Source of the DNA: a virus
UHGV virus genome: UHGV-1698770
DNA: 18,856 nucleotides
Direction: 5' to 3' (one strand)
Both the position numbers and the translations under genes were made by a program. Of this stretch, positions 151 to 13,333 are shown piece after piece. Position 1 is the stretch's first letter, and every line of letters starts with the position of its first letter. Below the pieces are notes generated by a model that ran no database searches, was not told the DNA's origin, and saw only the letters and a program-made list of their open reading frames with translations.

Positions 151-228
151 TGGCGTTCCAGAAGGGATTTGAACCCTCAGATGTCCACTTTGAAAGAGTG
201 GTGACTTTACCATTTTGTCTACTGGAAC
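151..228 (-). tRNA. tRNA-Glu (anticodon UUC), CCA encoded
   Basis: Minus strand: acceptor GTTCCAG/CTGGAAC, anticodon stem CCACT/AGTGG with loop CTTTCAA (U33, UUC, A37), T arm GAGGG-TTCAAAT-CCCTT, discriminator G then CCA. Confidence 0.8.
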
Positions 229-235
229 ATTAATT

Positions 236-312
236 TGGTCTCTGTTGGAGGACTTGAACCTCCGGCCTTACCGCCCCAAACGGAACGCTCTACCAAGCTG
301 AGCTAAACAGAG
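236..312 (-). tRNA. tRNA-Pro (anticodon UGG), CCA encoded
   Basis: Minus strand: acceptor CTCTGTT/AACAGAG, D arm GCTC-AGCTTGGTA-GAGC, anticodon loop TTTGGGG (UGG), T arm GGAGG-TTCAAGT-CCTCC, discriminator A then CCA. Lies 7 nt upstream of tRNA-Glu. Confidence 0.8.
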
Positions 313-3564: not shown

Positions 3565-3590
3565 AGGGGCTGATGCCCCTTTAACTATTT
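3565..3590 (+). terminator. weak hairpin AGGGGC-tgat-GCCCCT followed by TT-rich tract
   Basis: 6-bp GC stem directly after the stop of 2966..3556; the T-run is interrupted. Confidence 0.35.
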
Positions 3591-3603
3591 ATAAGGATAT
3601 TTA

Positions 3604-3975
3604 ATGAAAGCTAAGAGTGCAAAAGACTTTTATTGCTTCCTACAATCCTATATCAATTCCGTGCAAAATGGTGAAAGGTACAACCTTAATGATGTTATCC
3701 CAACACCTTTGACATGGAGACTCAGTAAATGGCCTGAAGAAGATATTACACCAACAATCGAACAACGCACCTACAAACCCGAAATCAATATTCCAGACTC
3801 TGAGAATCTATTATATCCAATGTTCCATATTGTTGGTCTTGGAAGATTCCTTATGGATATCCAGTATGTAATTGGTAAAGGTTATAAGGTCAAAGGTATC
3901 GTTGTTGGTGATGTATCTCCGCATCACAAAGGTTATTTTAGACTAAACGCACATTTAGAGGCTAAAAAGAAATGA
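3604..3975 (+). CDS. hypothetical protein; stand-alone paralog of the N-terminal domain of the downstream Ig-repeat protein
   Basis: 123 aa, ATG with AAGGA RBS. Shares KAK..DF, WPE(E/A)DI, LLY and FLMD(I/L)QY blocks with residues 1-120 of 3972..5357 (about 30 percent identity by eye). Confidence 0.75.
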   Translation: MKAKSAKDFYCFLQSYINSVQNGERYNLNDVIPTPLTWRLSKWPEEDITPTIEQRTYKPEINIPDSENLLYPMFHIVGLGRFLMDIQYVIGKGYKVKGIVVGDVSPHHKGYFRLNAHLEAKKK

Positions 3976-5357
3976 TTAAAGCAAAGACTTACCCAGACTT
4001 CAAAGAGTTTGTAAAAGGTTTCGTTGCAAACGTAAAGGCTGGTAAGAGGTATGATTTTAGAACATATCAAGAAGCTATTTTACCACTTACCTATAGTTCG
4101 TATTGGCCTGAAGCTGATATTGCAGAAGTTAAGGAGTTTGATTACGAGCCAGACTATAAAGTTCCATTTAGTGATGAGTTGCTTTACAGCATTGGCGCTC
4201 AAATGAGAACTTCTGACTTCTTCATGGACTTACAATATGCAATTATCAATGGTAAAGACGTTGATACAGTTTATTGTGAATGGCTGGCAAGAGTTAAACC
4301 GTTCTCAATGTTGAATGCTAAGTTGAAGGATGCTATCAAGCCACCATCAATCACTCAGCAACCAACCAATCAAACAGTAAATGAAGGGGGTACACTTACC
4401 CTGAGCGTTATTGCAACTAATGCCACTGGATATCAATGGAAAAAGGGTGGTGAGGATATCACCAGCGCCACATCTGCAACCTACACAAAACAGTCTGTAG
4501 CACCCTCTGATGCTGGTTCTTATACTTGTGTTGTGTCTGGAGAGGCTGGGACAACTGTTACCTCAGATGCGGCAACAGTTACTGTCAACGCACTGCCTGT
4601 TATTACACAGCAACCTTCTAGCCAGACTATCAATGAGGGTGGAAACATCAGCTTGGGAGTGACTGCAACGGGTGCAACGGGTTACCAGTGGAAGAAAGAT
4701 GGCTCTGACATTCCTTCGGCTACAGAGGCTACCTATAGCAAGTCTGGTGCGCTGCCAGCAGATGCAGGTTCATACACTTGCGTTGTAACAGGTGCAGGTG
4801 GTTCTGTTACTTCTAGCCCTGCAACTGTCACAGTAAATGCTTTGCCAGTTATTACCAAGCAGCCAACAAATCAGGTAGTTAATGAGGGTAACTCTTTGAC
4901 ACTGAGTGTTGAGGCTACAGGTGCAGAAGGTTACCAATGGAAAAAGGACAATGTGAACATCCCTAGCGCAACTGGTGCGACTTACACGAAAGCTAACGCA
5001 GTTCCTGCCGATGCTGGTTCCTATACCTGTGTAGTTACTGGTGCAGGTGGTACAACAGCCACATCTAACGCAGCAACAGTTACTGTGAATGCACTTCCGG
5101 TAATCACTCAACAGCCAACCAATCAAGAAATCACTGAAGGTGAGACCTTAACGCTGAATGTTGTGGCAACAGGTGCGACAGGTTACCAGTGGAAGAAAGG
5201 TGAGGAAGACATCCTCGATGCAACTACTGCAACTTACACCAAAGAAGGTGCAACCACTGCTGATGCAGGAAACTACACTTGTGTAGTGACTGGCGCAGGT
5301 GGCTCTGTAACATCTAATGCGGCAACAGTTACAGTTAACCCAGCAGGGGAGGCATAA
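3972..5357 (+). CDS. Ig-like repeat protein: N-terminal domain plus four tandem ~83-aa Ig-like domains (Hoc-like decoration-type architecture)
   Basis: 461 aa. Four repeats of ITQQPTNQ..NEG..L.L.V.ATGA.GYQWKK.G..I..AT.ATYTK....DAGSYTCVVTGAGG..TS..ATVTVNALPV, with the W and Y-x-C signature of Ig folds. No signal peptide. Start overlaps upstream stop (ATGA). Confidence 0.9.
   Translation: MIKAKTYPDFKEFVKGFVANVKAGKRYDFRTYQEAILPLTYSSYWPEADIAEVKEFDYEPDYKVPFSDELLYSIGAQMRTSDFFMDLQYAIINGKDVDTVYCEWLARVKPFSMLNAKLKDAIKPPSITQQPTNQTVNEGGTLTLSVIATNATGYQWKKGGEDITSATSATYTKQSVAPSDAGSYTCVVSGEAGTTVTSDAATVTVNALPVITQQPSSQTINEGGNISLGVTATGATGYQWKKDGSDIPSATEATYSKSGALPADAGSYTCVVTGAGGSVTSSPATVTVNALPVITKQPTNQVVNEGNSLTLSVEATGAEGYQWKKDNVNIPSATGATYTKANAVPADAGSYTCVVTGAGGTTATSNAATVTVNALPVITQQPTNQEITEGETLTLNVVATGATGYQWKKGEEDILDATTATYTKEGATTADAGNYTCVVTGAGGSVTSNAATVTVNPAGEA
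4341..5340 (+). repeat. four tandem direct repeats of 249-252 bp encoding the Ig-like domains
   Basis: Repeat unit starts near 4344, 4596, 4845 and 5097; diverged but clearly alignable at nucleotide level; locally higher GC than surroundings. Confidence 0.85.
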
Positions 5358-5821
5358 TGCAACTCTCACAGAAAGGTTTAGAAGCTATTAAGTTCTTTGA
5401 AGGTCTTAAGCTAGAGGCTTACGAAGATTCTGCTGGAATCCCCACAATTGGGTATGGGACAATCCGTATTGCTGGCAAACCTGTTAAGATGGGTATGAAG
5501 ATTACCGCTGAACAAGCTGAACAGTATCTTCTCGCAGATGTTGAAAAGTTCGTTGCAGCAGTGAACAAAGTCATCAAGGTTCCAACTTCTCAGAACGAGT
5601 TTGATGCACTTGTAAGTGAAACATACAACATTGGCATCACGGCTATGCAGGACTCCACATTTATCAAGCGCCACAATGCTGGTAATAAGGTTGGTTGTGC
5701 AGAAGCTATGCAGTGGTGGAACAAGGTCACAGTCAAAGGTAAGAAGGTCACTTCAAACGGCCTGAAAAACAGACGTAGAATGGAAGCTGACATTTATCTT
5801 GACAGTGTATATCCAAAGTAA
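5357..5821 (+). CDS. lysozyme, glycoside hydrolase family 24 (T4-lysozyme-type endolysin)
   Basis: 154 aa. N-terminal FEGLKLEAYEDSAGIPTIGYGT carries the Glu, Asp and Thr catalytic positions of phage lysozymes; C-terminal NGLKNRRRMEADIY block. ATG overlaps the upstream TAA (TAATG) with GGGGAGG RBS. No N-terminal TM/SAR segment. Confidence 0.92.
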   Translation: MQLSQKGLEAIKFFEGLKLEAYEDSAGIPTIGYGTIRIAGKPVKMGMKITAEQAEQYLLADVEKFVAAVNKVIKVPTSQNEFDALVSETYNIGITAMQDSTFIKRHNAGNKVGCAEAMQWWNKVTVKGKKVTSNGLKNRRRMEADIYLDSVYPK

Positions 5822-5830
5822 TATCTTCAT

Positions 5831-5859
5831 AGGCTCCTTCGGGAGCCTTTTTTATTTTC
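5831..5859 (+). terminator. rho-independent terminator
   Basis: AGGCTCC-ttcg-GGAGCCT perfect 7-bp stem with tetraloop followed by TTTTTTATTTT, 10 nt after the lysozyme stop. Confidence 0.8.
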
Positions 5860-10446: not shown

Positions 10447-10995
10447 ATGGAAAAAGATAACTTAAAAGATGTTGAAGGTAACTATCTAGTCCTTGACTGG
10501 AAGGATGTTCGGGAAGCACTCTCCGAAGAAAATCTTGACTGGTTCGAACAAATTATCTTTGCAGTACGGCATAACAGAGAAGTTGAAAATGGTAAAGAGC
10601 CACTTGAAGGAATCTTTGTAGAAAGGTCTTATCCGTTCTATGAAGACACTTTGCAGAAAGTTAAAATGTACTTTAGACAGAAGAACCGTAAAGTGGTCAC
10701 TATGGTATCTCTTGGTGGACAGAGTATGTCTGTGATGGAAGATATCAACCCTAAGAGACCGAGTAAAGGTGTCTGTATAAAAATCACAGGTCATGAAGAG
10801 TATATCTCAGTGGATGATTTTAGTGTATTCTGTAATGGTTCTGCTGTCTTTAATGGATTTCACTATGATATCCGAGTGTATCCAATCAAGGGAGATGCTG
10901 TTATGATGCAGATATTTGATAACAATAATGGATTCACTCATTTTTATCAGACAACCAAGTCATCATTAAAAACAGTTCTGGAAACACTGATTTAA
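10447..10995 (+). CDS. hypothetical protein (182 aa)
   Basis: First non-overlapping ATG (MEKDNLKD...); the track start at 10372 would overlap the upstream gene by 62 nt. Confidence 0.6.
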   Translation: MEKDNLKDVEGNYLVLDWKDVREALSEENLDWFEQIIFAVRHNREVENGKEPLEGIFVERSYPFYEDTLQKVKMYFRQKNRKVVTMVSLGGQSMSVMEDINPKRPSKGVCIKITGHEEYISVDDFSVFCNGSAVFNGFHYDIRVYPIKGDAVMMQIFDNNNGFTHFYQTTKSSLKTVLETLI

Positions 10996-11006
10996 AATAT
11001 CTTAAG

Positions 11007-11037
11007 AGCCTCCTTAATTGGGGGCTTTTTAATTTTT
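11007..11037 (+). terminator. rho-independent terminator closing the plus-strand block
   Basis: AGCCTCC-ttaatt-GGGGGCT stem (one G-U pair) followed by TTTTTAATTTTT. Confidence 0.75.
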
Positions 11038-11640
11038 ATAAAATTTTATCGGTTGTCCCAACCTCTGGGTCACCATTATATGTGAACAAAATATCTACCC
11101 TTCTTAACAACCTTCTTAATCTTACTCTCTATATATAGTTATATAGTACTATATAGTATCTTAGTAACTATCTAGTGGTCTTAATAGCCCTCTGTATAGC
11201 CCTTCTAAATAGCCATCTAAACACTCTTCTAACAAGCCTTCTAAACAACCTATACAATCATCTTAACCATCTCTCTACACACTCTTAGAAGCTCCTATAC
11301 ACCTCTTAATCTCTATGTAAGCTATGATACCCTCTATAGGTGTTCACTAGGTATTACTAAGCCTCTATATAGACTGTTTTAACAAACTTAACAGGAATAT
11401 CTTCACAGACCTTATCTCACAAGGTCTAACACGGTACTAACAAGGTATCTTATAAGCCTGTTTATGCCTGTATTTTTAAAAGACTGTCTAGGTAATTATT
11501 CAGAATTTTAAAATTTTTATAAAATAGGACTATCAAGTCATTTTTTAGGGTCTTTGAAGGAACTGAAAAATATCTGTCTAGGATGTATATCTGCTTGGTA
11601 GCCCTTAACAGCTCCCTTACAAGTACTTTGCAAAATTTTA

Positions 11641-11880
11641 AAATATCCTTAACAATCTCTTAACAGTTCTCACATTTTCTTAACAACTCTTCAAAGGTCT
11701 TAACAGATTCTTAACAGAACTAACAAGGCTGTAACAAGTTCTTAACAGTCGATACATGGTCTTTACAGAGTCTTAACAGATGACTAACAAGAGCTAACAA
11801 GTTAATTTTTAAGAGTTATTTTGTTAAGATAATTAACAAGTTCCTAACAAGTATTTAATCTTTTTAACAAGCTATTAACA
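11641..11880. repeat. array of at least 15 TAACA(A/G)-core motifs (TCTTAACAG / CTAACAAG) phased at 10-11 bp
   Basis: Core starts at 11650, 11661, 11681, 11701, 11712, 11721, 11732, 11743, 11774, 11785, 11795, 11834, 11845, 11865, 11876; successive differences are 9-11 bp or multiples. No ORF in any frame. Confidence 0.7.
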
Positions 11881-12062
11881 TGGTCACTATCTCTTTCTTA
11901 TCGTTCCCTTTCCCTCTTAGTGATTCTTTAAACATACCTCTTAAAAGCTCTCTATAGCTCTTTATAAGCTCTTTTAAGCCTCTTCCTAGTATCTATCCCC
12001 CAACTGTACAAACACCTCTTTATAGAGCTTTACAGGAGCTTTTAAGGCTATGTCAAAGACTC

Positions 12063-12170
12063 TTACAAGGCTTTTACGTGGTCTTAACAGAGATTTAACA
12101 AGGGGCTAACAAGTCTCTAACAAGCATAACTATGTAGGGATTGTTAAGAAATTGTTAAGAAAATGTTAAG
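12063..12170. repeat. second cluster of the same motif: direct copies then three inverted copies (TGTTAAG)
   Basis: Direct copies at 12085, 12096, 12107, 12118 (11-bp spacing); inverted copies starting 12142, 12153, 12164 (11-bp spacing); orientation switches around 12125-12140. Confidence 0.6.
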
Positions 12171-12181
12171 GGGGCTAGCAT

Positions 12182-12233
12182 TTACGTAACTTTATAGCCT
12201 TTTTTACGTAACTTTGAAGTAACTTTATAGCCC
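12182..12233. repeat. direct repeat TTACGTAACTTTATAGCC x2, second copy with internal GTAACTTT reduplication
   Basis: Copies at 12182-12199 and 12205-12233. Confidence 0.5.
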
Positions 12234-12598
12234 CTATAACATGCTTTTTAGTGACTAGCAAGGGGGTTGTTTAACCATTCACAAGGTACTAACCAGCCTA
12301 TAAGCTTACACCCTTATAAGATTCTTTTAAGCCTCTATAAAGCCCTGTAAAGAGCTTTTTAAGATAGGTTAATGCAATCCCTTAAGTTAGGTTGATAAGG
12401 CTGTTATAGAGCTTTATAGAGCGTTTAAATGGGCCATCCCCTTTCTGGGGTTATTGGCTTTTATTTAAGTTGATTTGATAAGAGGTTATAGAGTAGACTA
12501 TAGAGTTATTGTTTTTAAGGTATGAGATAGGTTCTATCGAATCAGTGGGAAGATTCTGGAAAGGTGAGGGAAAGGGATTGTATAAGGATTCAATAGAC

Positions 12599-12653
12599 GT
12601 AAAAAAGCCCCTTTAAATAGGGGCTGTTGAGGTATCTGGGGCTATTTAGCCCC
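12599..12653 (-). terminator. tandem hairpins forming the intrinsic terminator of the minus-strand block
   Basis: On the minus strand: GGGGCT-aaat-AGCCCC (12638-12653), then AGCCCCT-atttaa-AGGGGCT (12606-12625) followed by TTTTTT. Confidence 0.75.
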
Positions 12654-12663
12654 GCTGCGTCGA

Positions 12664-12912
12664 TTAGTTATAATCTTGTTTGTCGTAGTACAGAGAGACA
12701 ATTTTTTCACCCCAATAGTGATAAGAATAACCCTCTTTGAGAACTTCCTGTTTTGTTTCTTTCCAGAACTCGTCAGAAGGATTATAGTCTTTGATGGTCT
12801 GACTGATAAGACCTTTCACCATTTCAAAGGCGTTATCAGTGCCTGCAATGTCAAATTTAACATCCAGAGAGGAAAAACCGAACTCGTTAACAGTAGCGCG
12901 GATAGTTGCCAT
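12664..12912 (-). CDS. hypothetical protein (82 aa)
   Basis: ATG at 12912 directly downstream of a type A cassette carrying an AGGAG RBS; last gene before the terminator. Confidence 0.7.
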   Translation of the reverse strand: MATIRATVNEFGFSSLDVKFDIAGTDNAFEMVKGLISQTIKDYNPSDEFWKETKQEVLKEGYSYHYWGEKIVSLYYDKQDYN

Positions 12913-13003
12913 TTTTGAATCTCCTAGTTTAAGGGTTTATTTAGTGGGGAGGTCATCCCTCCCCGTTGATTAGTAATTTACTGCATGTTGGCGTATGTTG
13001 CAA
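12913..13003 (-). repeat. type A cassette (promoter TTGCAA-N17-TAAATT, stem-loop GGGGAGG/CCTCCCC, RBS)
   Basis: Conserved unit TTTTGAATCTCC(T)AGTTTA(A)GG..TTTATTTAGTGGGGAGG..CCCCGTTGATT. On the minus strand: -35 12998-13003, -10 12975-12980, hairpin 12946-12964, AGGAG RBS, ATG 12912. Confidence 0.7.
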
Positions 13004-13241
13004 GCCTTTTTTCGTTGTATTTTGTAAGAATCTCACAAGATAGAACATCGTACTTTGTAACCGCGTTGCCTTTGTCGAGGTCAAAAAAGCCAAACGCTTT
13101 ACCATCTTTGAATCCGACAACTTCGTAAGACTCTTTGATGATTTCACCATTGAACAAATCGCTTTCGATACGGTGGAATAATGCTACATCTTCTTTGTCA
13201 GTTGCAATTTGTAAAAGTGTGGTTAATTCTACGTTTTCCAT
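12978..13241 (-). CDS. hypothetical protein (87 aa)
   Basis: ATG at 13241 after cassette A2; its stop overlaps the -10 of cassette A1. Confidence 0.7.
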   Translation of the reverse strand: MENVELTTLLQIATDKEDVALFHRIESDLFNGEIIKESYEVVGFKDGKAFGFFDLDKGNAVTKYDVLSCEILTKYNEKRLATYANMQ

Positions 13242-13333
13242 CTTGATAACTCCAGTTTAGGACTTTATTTAGTGGGGAAGGTCATTCCCTCCCCGTTGAT
13301 TGACAATTTACAGACTTTTAAGTGTCTCGTCAA
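13242..13333 (-). repeat. type A cassette (TTGACG-N17-TAAATT, stem-loop, GGAG RBS)
   Basis: Hairpin GGGGAAGG-tcatt-CCCTCCCC at 13274-13294; -10 at 13305-13310; -35 at 13328-13333 lies inside the upstream gene's 3' end. Confidence 0.7.

Follow-up and report, generated by a model that had tools for sequence, protein, structure and literature searches.

A Felix O1-like phage unit with a four-Ig Hex-Dec head-decoration protein, an upstream anchor-only paralogue and an endolysin

A three-gene unit of a Felix O1-like myophage is best explained as a whole as a head-decoration cassette (probability about 0.9), composed of an orthologue of the capsid protein Hex-Dec, a late-expressed paralogue of its anchor and an endolysin. 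The window, i.e. the whole stretch of 18,856 nt that was analysed, was 96% identical over 3.5 kb to Felixounavirus genomes and belongs to Felixounavirus. What Hex-Dec is, how it folds, where on the capsid it sits, where its gene lies and how its Ig number varies are known from work on close relatives published in 2025. Possibly new are the conserved and selected anchor-only gene directly upstream of Hex-Dec, the occurrence of four-unit forms beyond Bas63, and the nature of the Ig units as old orthologous cassettes with a fixed pattern of gain and loss and with chimeras as traces of recombination. Three open reading frames were found on the same strand at 3604–3975 (123 aa), 3972–5357 (461 aa) and 5357–5821 (154 aa), with the following features:

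3566..3590, + strand: hairpin GGGGC-TGAT-GCCCC with an interrupted T-run, from the sequence, conserved, equal to Felix O1 terminator t38
3604..3975, + strand: anchor-only 123-aa paralogue of the Hex-Dec capsid-binding domain (BLASTP, phmmer, AF2)
3972..4343, + strand: Hex-Dec capsid-binding domain (CapBD), aa 1–124, with Arg79 and Arg107
4344..4595, + strand: Ig unit 1, aa 125–208 (Pfam Ig_3/I-set), in nearly all relatives
4596..4844, + strand: Ig unit 2, aa 209–291 (Pfam), only in three- and four-unit relatives
4845..5096, + strand: Ig unit 3, aa 292–375 (Pfam), cassette specific to four-unit forms
5097..5357, + strand: Ig unit 4, C-terminal tail and stop codon (Pfam, unit boundaries)
5357..5821, + strand: endolysin, GH24 phage lysozyme, Felix O1 gp35 (PF00959, E=1e-40; phrog_7 endolysin)
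5831..5858, + strand: strong intrinsic terminator AGGCTCC-TTCG-GGAGCCT with T-run, equal to Felix O1 t35

The hairpins at 3566..3590 and 5831..5858 are identical to t38 and t35 of Felix O1 (PMC3185647, Table 2), both carry a terminator annotation in AYO145A, and in the upstream one the stem was kept across loci with varied loops; they mark the upstream and downstream limits of the three-gene unit. A scan for sigma-70 promoters between the upstream hairpin and the 123-aa gene found none, and with ~24 nt between hairpin and ATG there is no room for one. An Rfam scan of the window returned two tRNAs and no other match. The unit was present in all 26 complete loci (26/26) as well as in a divergent contig of 87 kb from metagenomic data. 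Both stop/start overlaps described in the first-pass annotation were seen, as ATGA at 3972–3975 between the 123-aa and 461-aa genes and as TAATG at 5355–5359, where the Hex-Dec stop overlaps the endolysin start; the third gene was likewise recognised as a lysozyme (Phage_lysozyme). The motif GGGGAGG (5346–5352) precedes TAATG, the last Hex-Dec codons doubling as the lysozyme Shine-Dalgarno sequence, and judged from this motif and the overlap, translational coupling from Hex-Dec to the lysozyme is plausible. In Mooglevirus, however, the overlap is not kept, and RT-PCR in Felix O1 gave the lysin a peak at 25 min, a time different from that of ORFs 36/37 (PMC3185647).

By homology, the 461-aa protein is the orthologue of Hex-Dec and, like Hoc, an accessory protein of the capsid. 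Using phmmer, it was matched to Bas63 Hex-Dec (9ncf_S) at E=3e-269 with ~93% identity and to Sf14 gp20 (9c2d_S) at E=1e-205 with ~70% identity. Its CapBD was ~96% identical to that of Bas63 in 9NCF_S, differing at ~5 of 124 positions, and contained both Arg79 and Arg107, which were invariant in 28/28 loci and which form salt bridges to Asp221 of the MCP (PMC11821841). Four Ig_3/I-set domains were detected with Pfam (E=1e-43), in agreement with the four tandem Ig-like domains read earlier from the sequence. As in its relatives, the gene is located directly 5' of the GH24 endolysin and outside the structural module; this site, >10 kb off, and an Ig number of 1–4 are already in print. The orthologues were located on the capsid, Sf14 gp20 by cryo-EM and mass spectrometry and Bas63 Hex-Dec by cryo-EM, and Felix O1 virions contain gp36 with 44% coverage (PMC3185647). 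In the cryo-EM structures of Sf14 and Bas63, the centres of the hexamers at the facet edges, 60 in the T=9 head, are plugged by the ~118-aa N-terminal domain, with one anchor each and the Ig array pointing outward.

Extrapolating from the 93% identity to Bas63, the two-lobed anchor of ~118 aa would occupy the centre of each of these 60 hexamers as a monomer, held in place by the salt bridges of Arg79 and Arg107 to MCP Asp221, and the four I-set Ig domains would project as a flexible acidic fibre, amounting to ~240 Ig domains on each head. The array probably mediates weak adhesion or aggregation, judging by analogy with T4 Hoc. The Ig protein had been considered unusual at first; it is a Hoc-like virion decoration protein, and it is ordinary because it has already been characterised as Hex-Dec, with cryo-EM in two relatives.

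The Ig units measured 84, 83, 84 and 86 aa, with a DNA spacing of 249/252/249 nt. Among themselves they shared ~71% amino acid and 60–70% nucleotide identity, with third positions near saturation and with longest common exact words of 10–19 nt. Tandem Repeats Finder did not report the ~250-bp repeats, their divergence being too high; seeded repeats and protein motifs were used to find them. The units are old duplicates acting as orthologous cassettes, some of them chimeric. Copy number, which the first-pass annotation had proposed to compare among relatives, varied from 1 to 4 in a regular pattern: four-unit forms read Ig1-2-3-4, three-unit forms Ig1-2-4, two-unit forms Ig1-4, and single-unit forms carry an Ig1/4 chimera. 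Between lineages, complete units are gained or lost in frame. The proposal that the repeats serve as a recombination substrate stood in part, as they are poor substrates for homologous recombination, whereas the chimeric units show past unequal exchange. The complete Ig3 cassette, the unit most diverged relative to Bas63, was found in at least 13 GenBank phage records in addition to this window; four-unit forms occur outside Bas63, which according to the Bas63 paper is the only one with four units among ICTV species.

The 123-aa gene is a real, late-expressed gene and a true paralogue of the anchor. Its suspected origin as a duplicate of the Hex-Dec N-terminal module was borne out by BLASTP (101 residues, 34% identity, E=4e-16) and by phmmer against 9ncf_S (E=6e-12, residues 2–117); the two modules match each other's PHROG families and have 32 invariant columns in common. 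Homologues are named Felix O1 gp37, Sf14 gp21 (YP_009618566) and VpaE1 ORF40 (phrog_4463), gp37 in FO1a being the anchor-only paralogue. Word-index searches for homologues retrieved close relatives only, and an exhaustive profile search for anchor homologues yielded 12 clusters only. An AF2 model computed from a shallow alignment reached a pLDDT of 58, with sequence-driven fold matches, and a more diverse alignment was used instead, which gave a pLDDT of 80 and a pTM of 0.80. In Foldseek, this model was aligned to 9c2d_S with TM 0.78/0.80 and to 9ncf_S with TM 0.75/0.76, with no further match in the PDB below E=0.3. The 123-aa protein is thus predicted to keep the whole Hex-Dec anchor fold, the prediction being partly sequence-driven.

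The gene was found directly upstream of Hex-Dec in ~92% of sequenced relatives, and its dN/dS of 0.126 indicates purifying selection. In the viable phages REP9 and Z31, it has decayed to a remnant. The protein (~14 kDa) is basic, with a pI of 9.1 versus 5.2 and an opposite net charge. Arg79 of Hex-Dec is aligned to Gly78 of the paralogue in 30/30 loci and also in the divergent P0099; Arg107 is aligned to Q, H, N or K in 30/30 loci and to Arg in P0099. Loss of the two arginines is no proof of lost capsid binding, because distant fused homologues are without one or both of them and P0099 has Arg107. The block had been described as early-gene-like, which is contradicted by RT-PCR in Felix O1, where transcripts of ORFs 36 and 37 reach their maximum at 60 min, alongside morphogenesis genes (PMC3185647).

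In the Felix O1 virion list, which includes only proteins covered to 25% or more, gp37 is missing (PMC3185647). The 123-aa protein is unmentioned for the Sf14 virion, including the supplement, the Sf14 table being one of chosen structural proteins only, and it does not appear in the cryo-EM reports of Sf14 and Bas63, whose maps are icosahedrally averaged. Neither structure paper discusses the anchor-only gene. Virion lists and maps could overlook a protein that is small, substoichiometric or averaged over 3-fold axes.

Our best guess is that the paralogue would bind capsid hexamers or Hex-Dec while heads mature, as a non-structural protein or only transiently; it may be dispensable in the laboratory. 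It seems unlikely that it is itself a capsid component, which fills Hex-Dec-free hexamers (e.g. the 20 on true 3-fold axes) or competes with Hex-Dec and in this way sets the number of Ig fibres per head. The predicted complete anchor fold (TM 0.78) and the invariant columns common with CapBD are in favour of such a plug, as are the co-transcription with Hex-Dec, likewise late, the basic charge of the protein next to the Asp lining known for hexamer centres, and the retention of the gene under purifying selection beside Hex-Dec in three lineages. However, both cryo-EM studies reported no density on the other hexamers, the protein is absent from the Felix O1 list although gp55 (11.7 kDa) and gp23 (9.7 kDa), of similar size, were detected, every copy has Gly instead of Arg79, and some viable phages carry only a decayed copy. 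A function of the paralogue as late regulator of decoration, which would bind hexamers in the procapsid, at the 20 three-fold positions or against Hex-Dec and would tune the display of Ig fibres, is similarly doubtful. To our knowledge, no decoration-tuning partner has been described for Hoc-like proteins. If the paralogue touches the capsid, it would offer a simple handle for studying and engineering the loading of decoration proteins, with relevance to phage display that uses therapeutic phages of the Felix O1 type.

For the 461-aa protein, a role as an early or non-virion Ig protein tied to lysis, e.g. as a carbohydrate-binding accessory delivered with the lysozyme, is very improbable. The stop/start overlap with the endolysin, the shared terminator-bounded unit and the distance of >10 kb from the structural module would fit this role, but cryo-EM places orthologues on the capsid, and mass spectrometry detected them in virions. 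Moreover, expression of the Ig gene is late in Felix O1 (PMC3185647), and the overlap with the endolysin was not kept in Mooglevirus, where gaps of +1 to +8 were found.

Even less credit was given to a programmed −1 frameshift at T AAA AAG, by which the anchor-only module would be fused to Hex-Dec as a double-anchor protein. A −1 slip at AAG (3967–3969) reads AAA GAA ATG and enters the Hex-Dec frame. The dnaX-type heptamer is A AAA AAG, and the junction with T AAA AAG is one base short of it. Fusion was rejected since the motif varies among relatives: loci L012 and L013 contain GAA AAG, locus L034 contains GTA AAA ATA, and Mooglevirus has AAG AAA, AAT AAA or AAT AAA AAT. In addition, gp36 of the Felix O1 virion corresponds in mass to the unfused form, and cryo-EM shows one anchor per hexamer. 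The GenBank annotation as tail or major tail protein, carried as a 'tail protein' label by most records and phrog_3995 and going along with the name major tail protein given to gp36 in the Felix O1 paper, can practically be discarded, as it has already been refuted by two structures: cryo-EM locates the protein to capsid hexamers, and in the Bas63 paper the annotation is flagged as wrong.

The head-decoration cassette was compared with known systems. T4 Hoc resembles Hex-Dec as a monomer at hexamer centres with a small anchor and a string of Ig-like domains, and is likewise acidic with a variable number of domains; Hoc is non-essential. Hoc carries its anchor at the C-terminus and Hex-Dec at the N-terminus, and we know of no stand-alone anchor paralogue for Hoc. 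Compared to the Hoc anchor, that of Hex-Dec is larger, topologically distinct and pseudo-C2 symmetric (PMC12609058). No Pfam or PDB match connected the Hex-Dec anchor with Hoc, and 'Hoc-like' PHROG matches covered aa 121–454 only. T5 pb10 (5LXK, 8ZVI) has a homologous Ig domain (5lxk_A, E=8e-12) but only one, the match covering only aa 299–374, and its anchor was without sequence match. The same N-terminal anchor module was found in the distant fusion relatives P0101–P0105 (profile E=7e-11 to 2e-5), in which the display part is Big_2, a single I-set or a Lys-rich tail and Arg79/Arg107 are not consistently kept. Sf14 gp20 (9C2D/9C3A chain S) is orthologous, endolysin-adjacent and preceded by the upstream paralogue, with three Ig units versus four here. 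Bas63 Hex-Dec (9NCF chain S) is orthologous too, the differences of both from the 461-aa protein being matters of detail; like Sf14 gp20, it has the same CapBD, Arg79/Arg107, I-set array, endolysin neighbour and upstream paralogue.

Three plus-strand open reading frames were found exactly where the first-pass annotation had placed them, with stop and start codons overlapping at both junctions.

3604-3975, plus strand: ORF, stand-alone anchor paralogue (123 aa)
3972-3975, plus strand: ATGA overlap of paralogue and Hex-Dec
3972-5357, plus strand: ORF, Hex-Dec (461 aa); Pfam four Ig_3/I-set, E = 1e-43
5346-5352, plus strand: strong lysozyme Shine-Dalgarno sequence, GGGGAGG, ahead of TAATG
5355-5359, plus strand: TAATG overlap of Hex-Dec and lysozyme
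5357-5821, plus strand: ORF, lysozyme (154 aa); Pfam Phage_lysozyme, E = 1e-40

The four tandem Ig-like domains were recovered at ~250-nt spacing (249/252/249), and the N-terminal module is doubled as the upstream gene: the 123-aa product matched the first ~100 residues of Hex-Dec (34% identity, E = 4e-16), and each matched the other's PHROG family. As an observation, the earlier description was confirmed in full. More than 180 felixounavirus relatives (Escherichia, Salmonella and Shigella phages) matched the region at 90-96% identity over 3.5 kb, Salmonella phages DaR-2019b and vB_Si_DR094 being closest (96.4%).

The Ig protein had been presented as an oddity; its orthologues are already characterised as head decoration in phages Bas63 and Sf14. 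PDB sequence search returned 9NCF chain S (460 aa, Bas63 icosahedral capsid; E = 3e-269, ~93% identity) and 9C2D/9C3A chain S (372 aa, Sf14 capsid; E = 1e-205). Since the two capsid papers cover these orthologues, Hoc-like decoration proteins named Hex-Dec in Bas63 and gp20 in Sf14 (PMC12609058, PMC11821841), the central protein is known and structurally characterised. Its capsid-binding domain (CapBD), the two-lobed, pseudo-C2 N-terminal ~118 residues, sits at the centre of pentamer-proximal (facet-edge) hexamers of the T=9 head, one copy per asymmetric unit; true three-fold hexamers are without it, and the flexible Ig domains give no resolved density (PMC12609058, PMC11821841). Sf14 gp20 was found in virions by mass spectrometry, and its Arg79 and Arg107 are salt-bridged to major capsid protein residue Asp221 (PMC11821841). 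The window Hex-Dec has both arginines, as do 28/28 related loci, and in every membership feature testable by sequence the window protein agrees with the Ounavirinae Hex-Dec/gp20 family. The Bas63 study placed the gene >10 kb outside the structural module, counted 1-4 Ig domains among Felixounavirus homologues and called the 'tail protein' annotation wrong (PMC12609058). That annotation was likewise rejected here on the capsid structures, as was a lysis-accessory role, which the capsid location contradicts.

Timing was considered from Felix O1, whose gp37, gp36 and gp35 correspond to the 123-aa gene, Hex-Dec and the lysin, respectively (FO1a numbering). By RT-PCR, ORFs 36 and 37 peak at 60 min, in the class of morphogenesis genes 51, 53, 63, 64, 72, 73, 76 and 77, and lysin ORF 35 at 25 min (PMC3185647). 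The suggestion of an early-gene-like block is therefore unsupported, as ORFs 36 and 37 belong to the late morphogenesis class. Two hairpins flank the locus.

3566-3590, plus strand: upstream hairpin, GGGGC-TGAT-GCCCC then an interrupted T-run; letter-for-letter Felix O1 t38 (PMC3185647)
5831-5858, plus strand: downstream hairpin, AGGCTCC-TTCG-GGAGCCT then a T-run; letter-for-letter Felix O1 t35 (PMC3185647)

Between the upstream hairpin and the ATG at 3604 there are only ~24 nt, an AAGGA Shine-Dalgarno sequence included. A scan of this gap found no sigma-70-like promoter; the unit is therefore probably transcribed by read-through past a weak terminator, or else from a promoter type outside the scan's model. 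Given this short distance and the interrupted T-run, the hairpin resembles a leaky terminator, or an element for RNA stability or processing, more than a sharp transcript boundary. Across the related loci (3566-3603 and homologous positions, L001-L035) the GGGGC/GCCCC stem is kept, with a TGAT, TAAT, ATCA or GAAA loop.

The -1 overlap of Hex-Dec with the lysozyme and the Shine-Dalgarno sequence were kept in every Felixounavirus locus examined; Mooglevirus loci have gaps of -1 to +8 (+1 to +8 except in locus L028), with the Shine-Dalgarno sequence retained. From these junctions, translational coupling of Hex-Dec to the lysozyme is plausible, with caution because the lysin RT-PCR peak differs in Felix O1. 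The last Hex-Dec codons (…NPAGEA; window 5341-5357) are the same DNA as the GGGGAGG signal, and the C-terminal tail is therefore doubly constrained, by coding and by a translation signal.

The Ig units were delimited by splitting at PxITxQP.

4344-4595, plus strand: Ig unit 1, 84 aa
4596-4844, plus strand: Ig unit 2, 83 aa
4845-5096, plus strand: Ig unit 3, 84 aa
5097-5354, plus strand: Ig unit 4, 86 aa

The four units of the window protein share 70-72% protein identity versus 60-70% DNA identity; identity at third codon positions is 25-48%, close to saturation, and the exact words in common reach 10-19 nt at most. Judged by this divergence, the duplications are old and were therefore missed by TRF, which did not report the ~250-nt repeats in the window, and the repeats are poorly suited to classical homologous recombination. 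Hex-Dec lengths across 28 loci were discrete (210, 294, 377 and 461 aa), and the units behave as orthologous cassettes.

4-unit Hex-Dec: Ig1-Ig2-Ig3-Ig4
3-unit Hex-Dec: Ig1-Ig2-Ig4
2-unit Hex-Dec: Ig1-Ig4
1-unit Hex-Dec: Ig1/Ig4 chimera (L005, L020)

An Ig3/Ig4 chimera was present in HY02 (L014), and chimeric units are read from their sequences as the footprint of occasional unequal exchange. The proposal that recombination varies the Ig number was thus right in its outcome, visible as length classes and chimeric units in relatives; the process itself appears rare and ancient, not ongoing. A complete Ig3 cassette was found in 13 GenBank phage records, 10 of them colinear with the window over the whole 3.5 kb, and 461-aa forms are also encoded by two IMG/VR contigs. 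The four-unit Hex-Dec is therefore a minority form, but one not restricted to Bas63 in the way a species-level survey had suggested (PMC12609058).

The stand-alone module was 122-124 aa long in 30/30 loci, with a median pairwise dN/dS of 0.126 (Hex-Dec CapBD, 0.051; Ig1, 0.106; lysozyme, 0.076), which marks a real gene. Of 253 matching phage records (Felixounavirus and Mooglevirus), 233 carry it intact and ~8% do not. An 87-kb metagenomic contig, itself divergent, has a copy with 45% identity (P0099) in the same arrangement of paralogue, Hex-Dec (2 Ig) and lysozyme, and the anchor duplication is accordingly dated as old from sequence comparison. A profile of both paralogues against 1.84 billion representatives gave only 12 clusters, marking a very narrow family at the sequence level. 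In its distant members (P0101-P0105) the same N-terminal anchor is fused to Big_2, a single I-set or a Lys-rich disordered tail, which suggests a reusable capsid module with swappable display domains. An AlphaFold2 model of the paralogue (pLDDT 80, pTM 0.80), built from a diverse alignment and partly sequence-driven, matched the Sf14 (TM 0.78/0.80) and Bas63 (0.75/0.76) anchors over the full length, with no other credible PDB match (next best E = 0.35); the paralogue is thus predicted to keep the whole anchor fold. No discussion of it was found in PMC12609058 or PMC11821841; gp21, its Sf14 counterpart, is absent from the Sf14 main text, and the supplement mentions only SPP1 gp21. What may be new here is the conserved anchor-only paralogue, together with some detail of cassette evolution.

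The paralogue departs from the anchor of Hex-Dec at the known capsid contacts. The Arg79 position is an invariant Gly (30/30 loci and P0099); the Arg107 position is a variable Q/H/N/K in 30/30 loci and Arg in P0099, and lies in the same loop as the model's sole low-confidence stretch (residues 105-108). The two also contrast in charge, the paralogue being basic (pI 9.1, +3.8) and the anchor of Hex-Dec acidic (pI 5.2). In the isolated, plaque-forming phages Z31 (Shigella; L030, 2998-3570) and REP9 (Escherichia; L031, 2806-2997) a shared decayed remnant has lost the start codon and carries an internal deletion of ~220 bp, so the paralogue is dispensable in some lineages. The Z31 Hex-Dec gene is itself split into two ORFs (405 and 168 nt) by a frameshift or sequencing error, which suggests that Hex-Dec may also be dispensable.

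The paralogue is best read as a late protein that partners the capsid hexamer or Hex-Dec either non-structurally or just transiently. That it is instead a substoichiometric plug without Ig domains on the capsid is unlikely: the list of 17 Felix O1 virion proteins with ≥25% coverage does not include it, though smaller proteins are on it (PMC3185647), and in both cryo-EM studies hexamers left empty by Hex-Dec show no density (PMC12609058, PMC11821841), although these negatives are not decisive, because a 14-kDa monomer on the three-fold axis would be averaged out. Fusion of the module to Hex-Dec by -1 frameshifting at T AAA AAG, a slip that would lead into the Hex-Dec frame, was rejected, as the motif is not kept in L012, L013, Mooglevirus or L034 and the Felix O1 virion protein has the unfused mass (PMC3185647). 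Separately, an extra, unassigned C3 density was reported at the tip of the Bas63 baseplate hub (PMC12609058), a virion component with which small proteins made late, the 14-kDa paralogue among them, could be compared.

Elsewhere in the window, tRNA-Glu(UUC) and tRNA-Pro(UGG) (151-312, minus strand) start a Felix O1-type tRNA cluster. An ORF-free zone of ~2.3 kb (11000-13300), between plus-strand genes ending at 10995 and minus-strand genes from 13308, is packed with short-period repeats and contains a GC-skew sign switch. The window holds 38 copies of YTAACAR (22.5 ± 4.7 expected), 26 of them within 11104-12158 and 23 of these on the plus strand; the repeats of the zone could be an iteron-like/regulator-binding array or a replication-related region. 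One Felix O1-like match was labelled 'Staphylococcus', and in the VpaE1 annotation table a 123-aa protein with 99% identity is separately credited to 'Staphylococcus phage SA1'; a Felix O1-like sequence of enterobacterial origin seems to carry the name of a staphylococcal host, which suggests mislabelling or contamination.

By extension from its relatives, Hex-Dec would be synthesised late, its anchor would plug 60 hexamer centres through Arg79/Arg107, and each copy would display four Ig domains, a fibre that may serve in weak adhesion or in aggregation, by analogy with the proposal for T4 Hoc. Hex-Dec resembles T4 Hoc and T5 pb10 in how it works, yet it stands outside both anchor families: Hoc carries a C-terminal anchor that is unrelated to the N-terminal one of Hex-Dec, and with pb10 only the Ig domain matches (5lxk_A, E = 8e-12, about aa 300-374).
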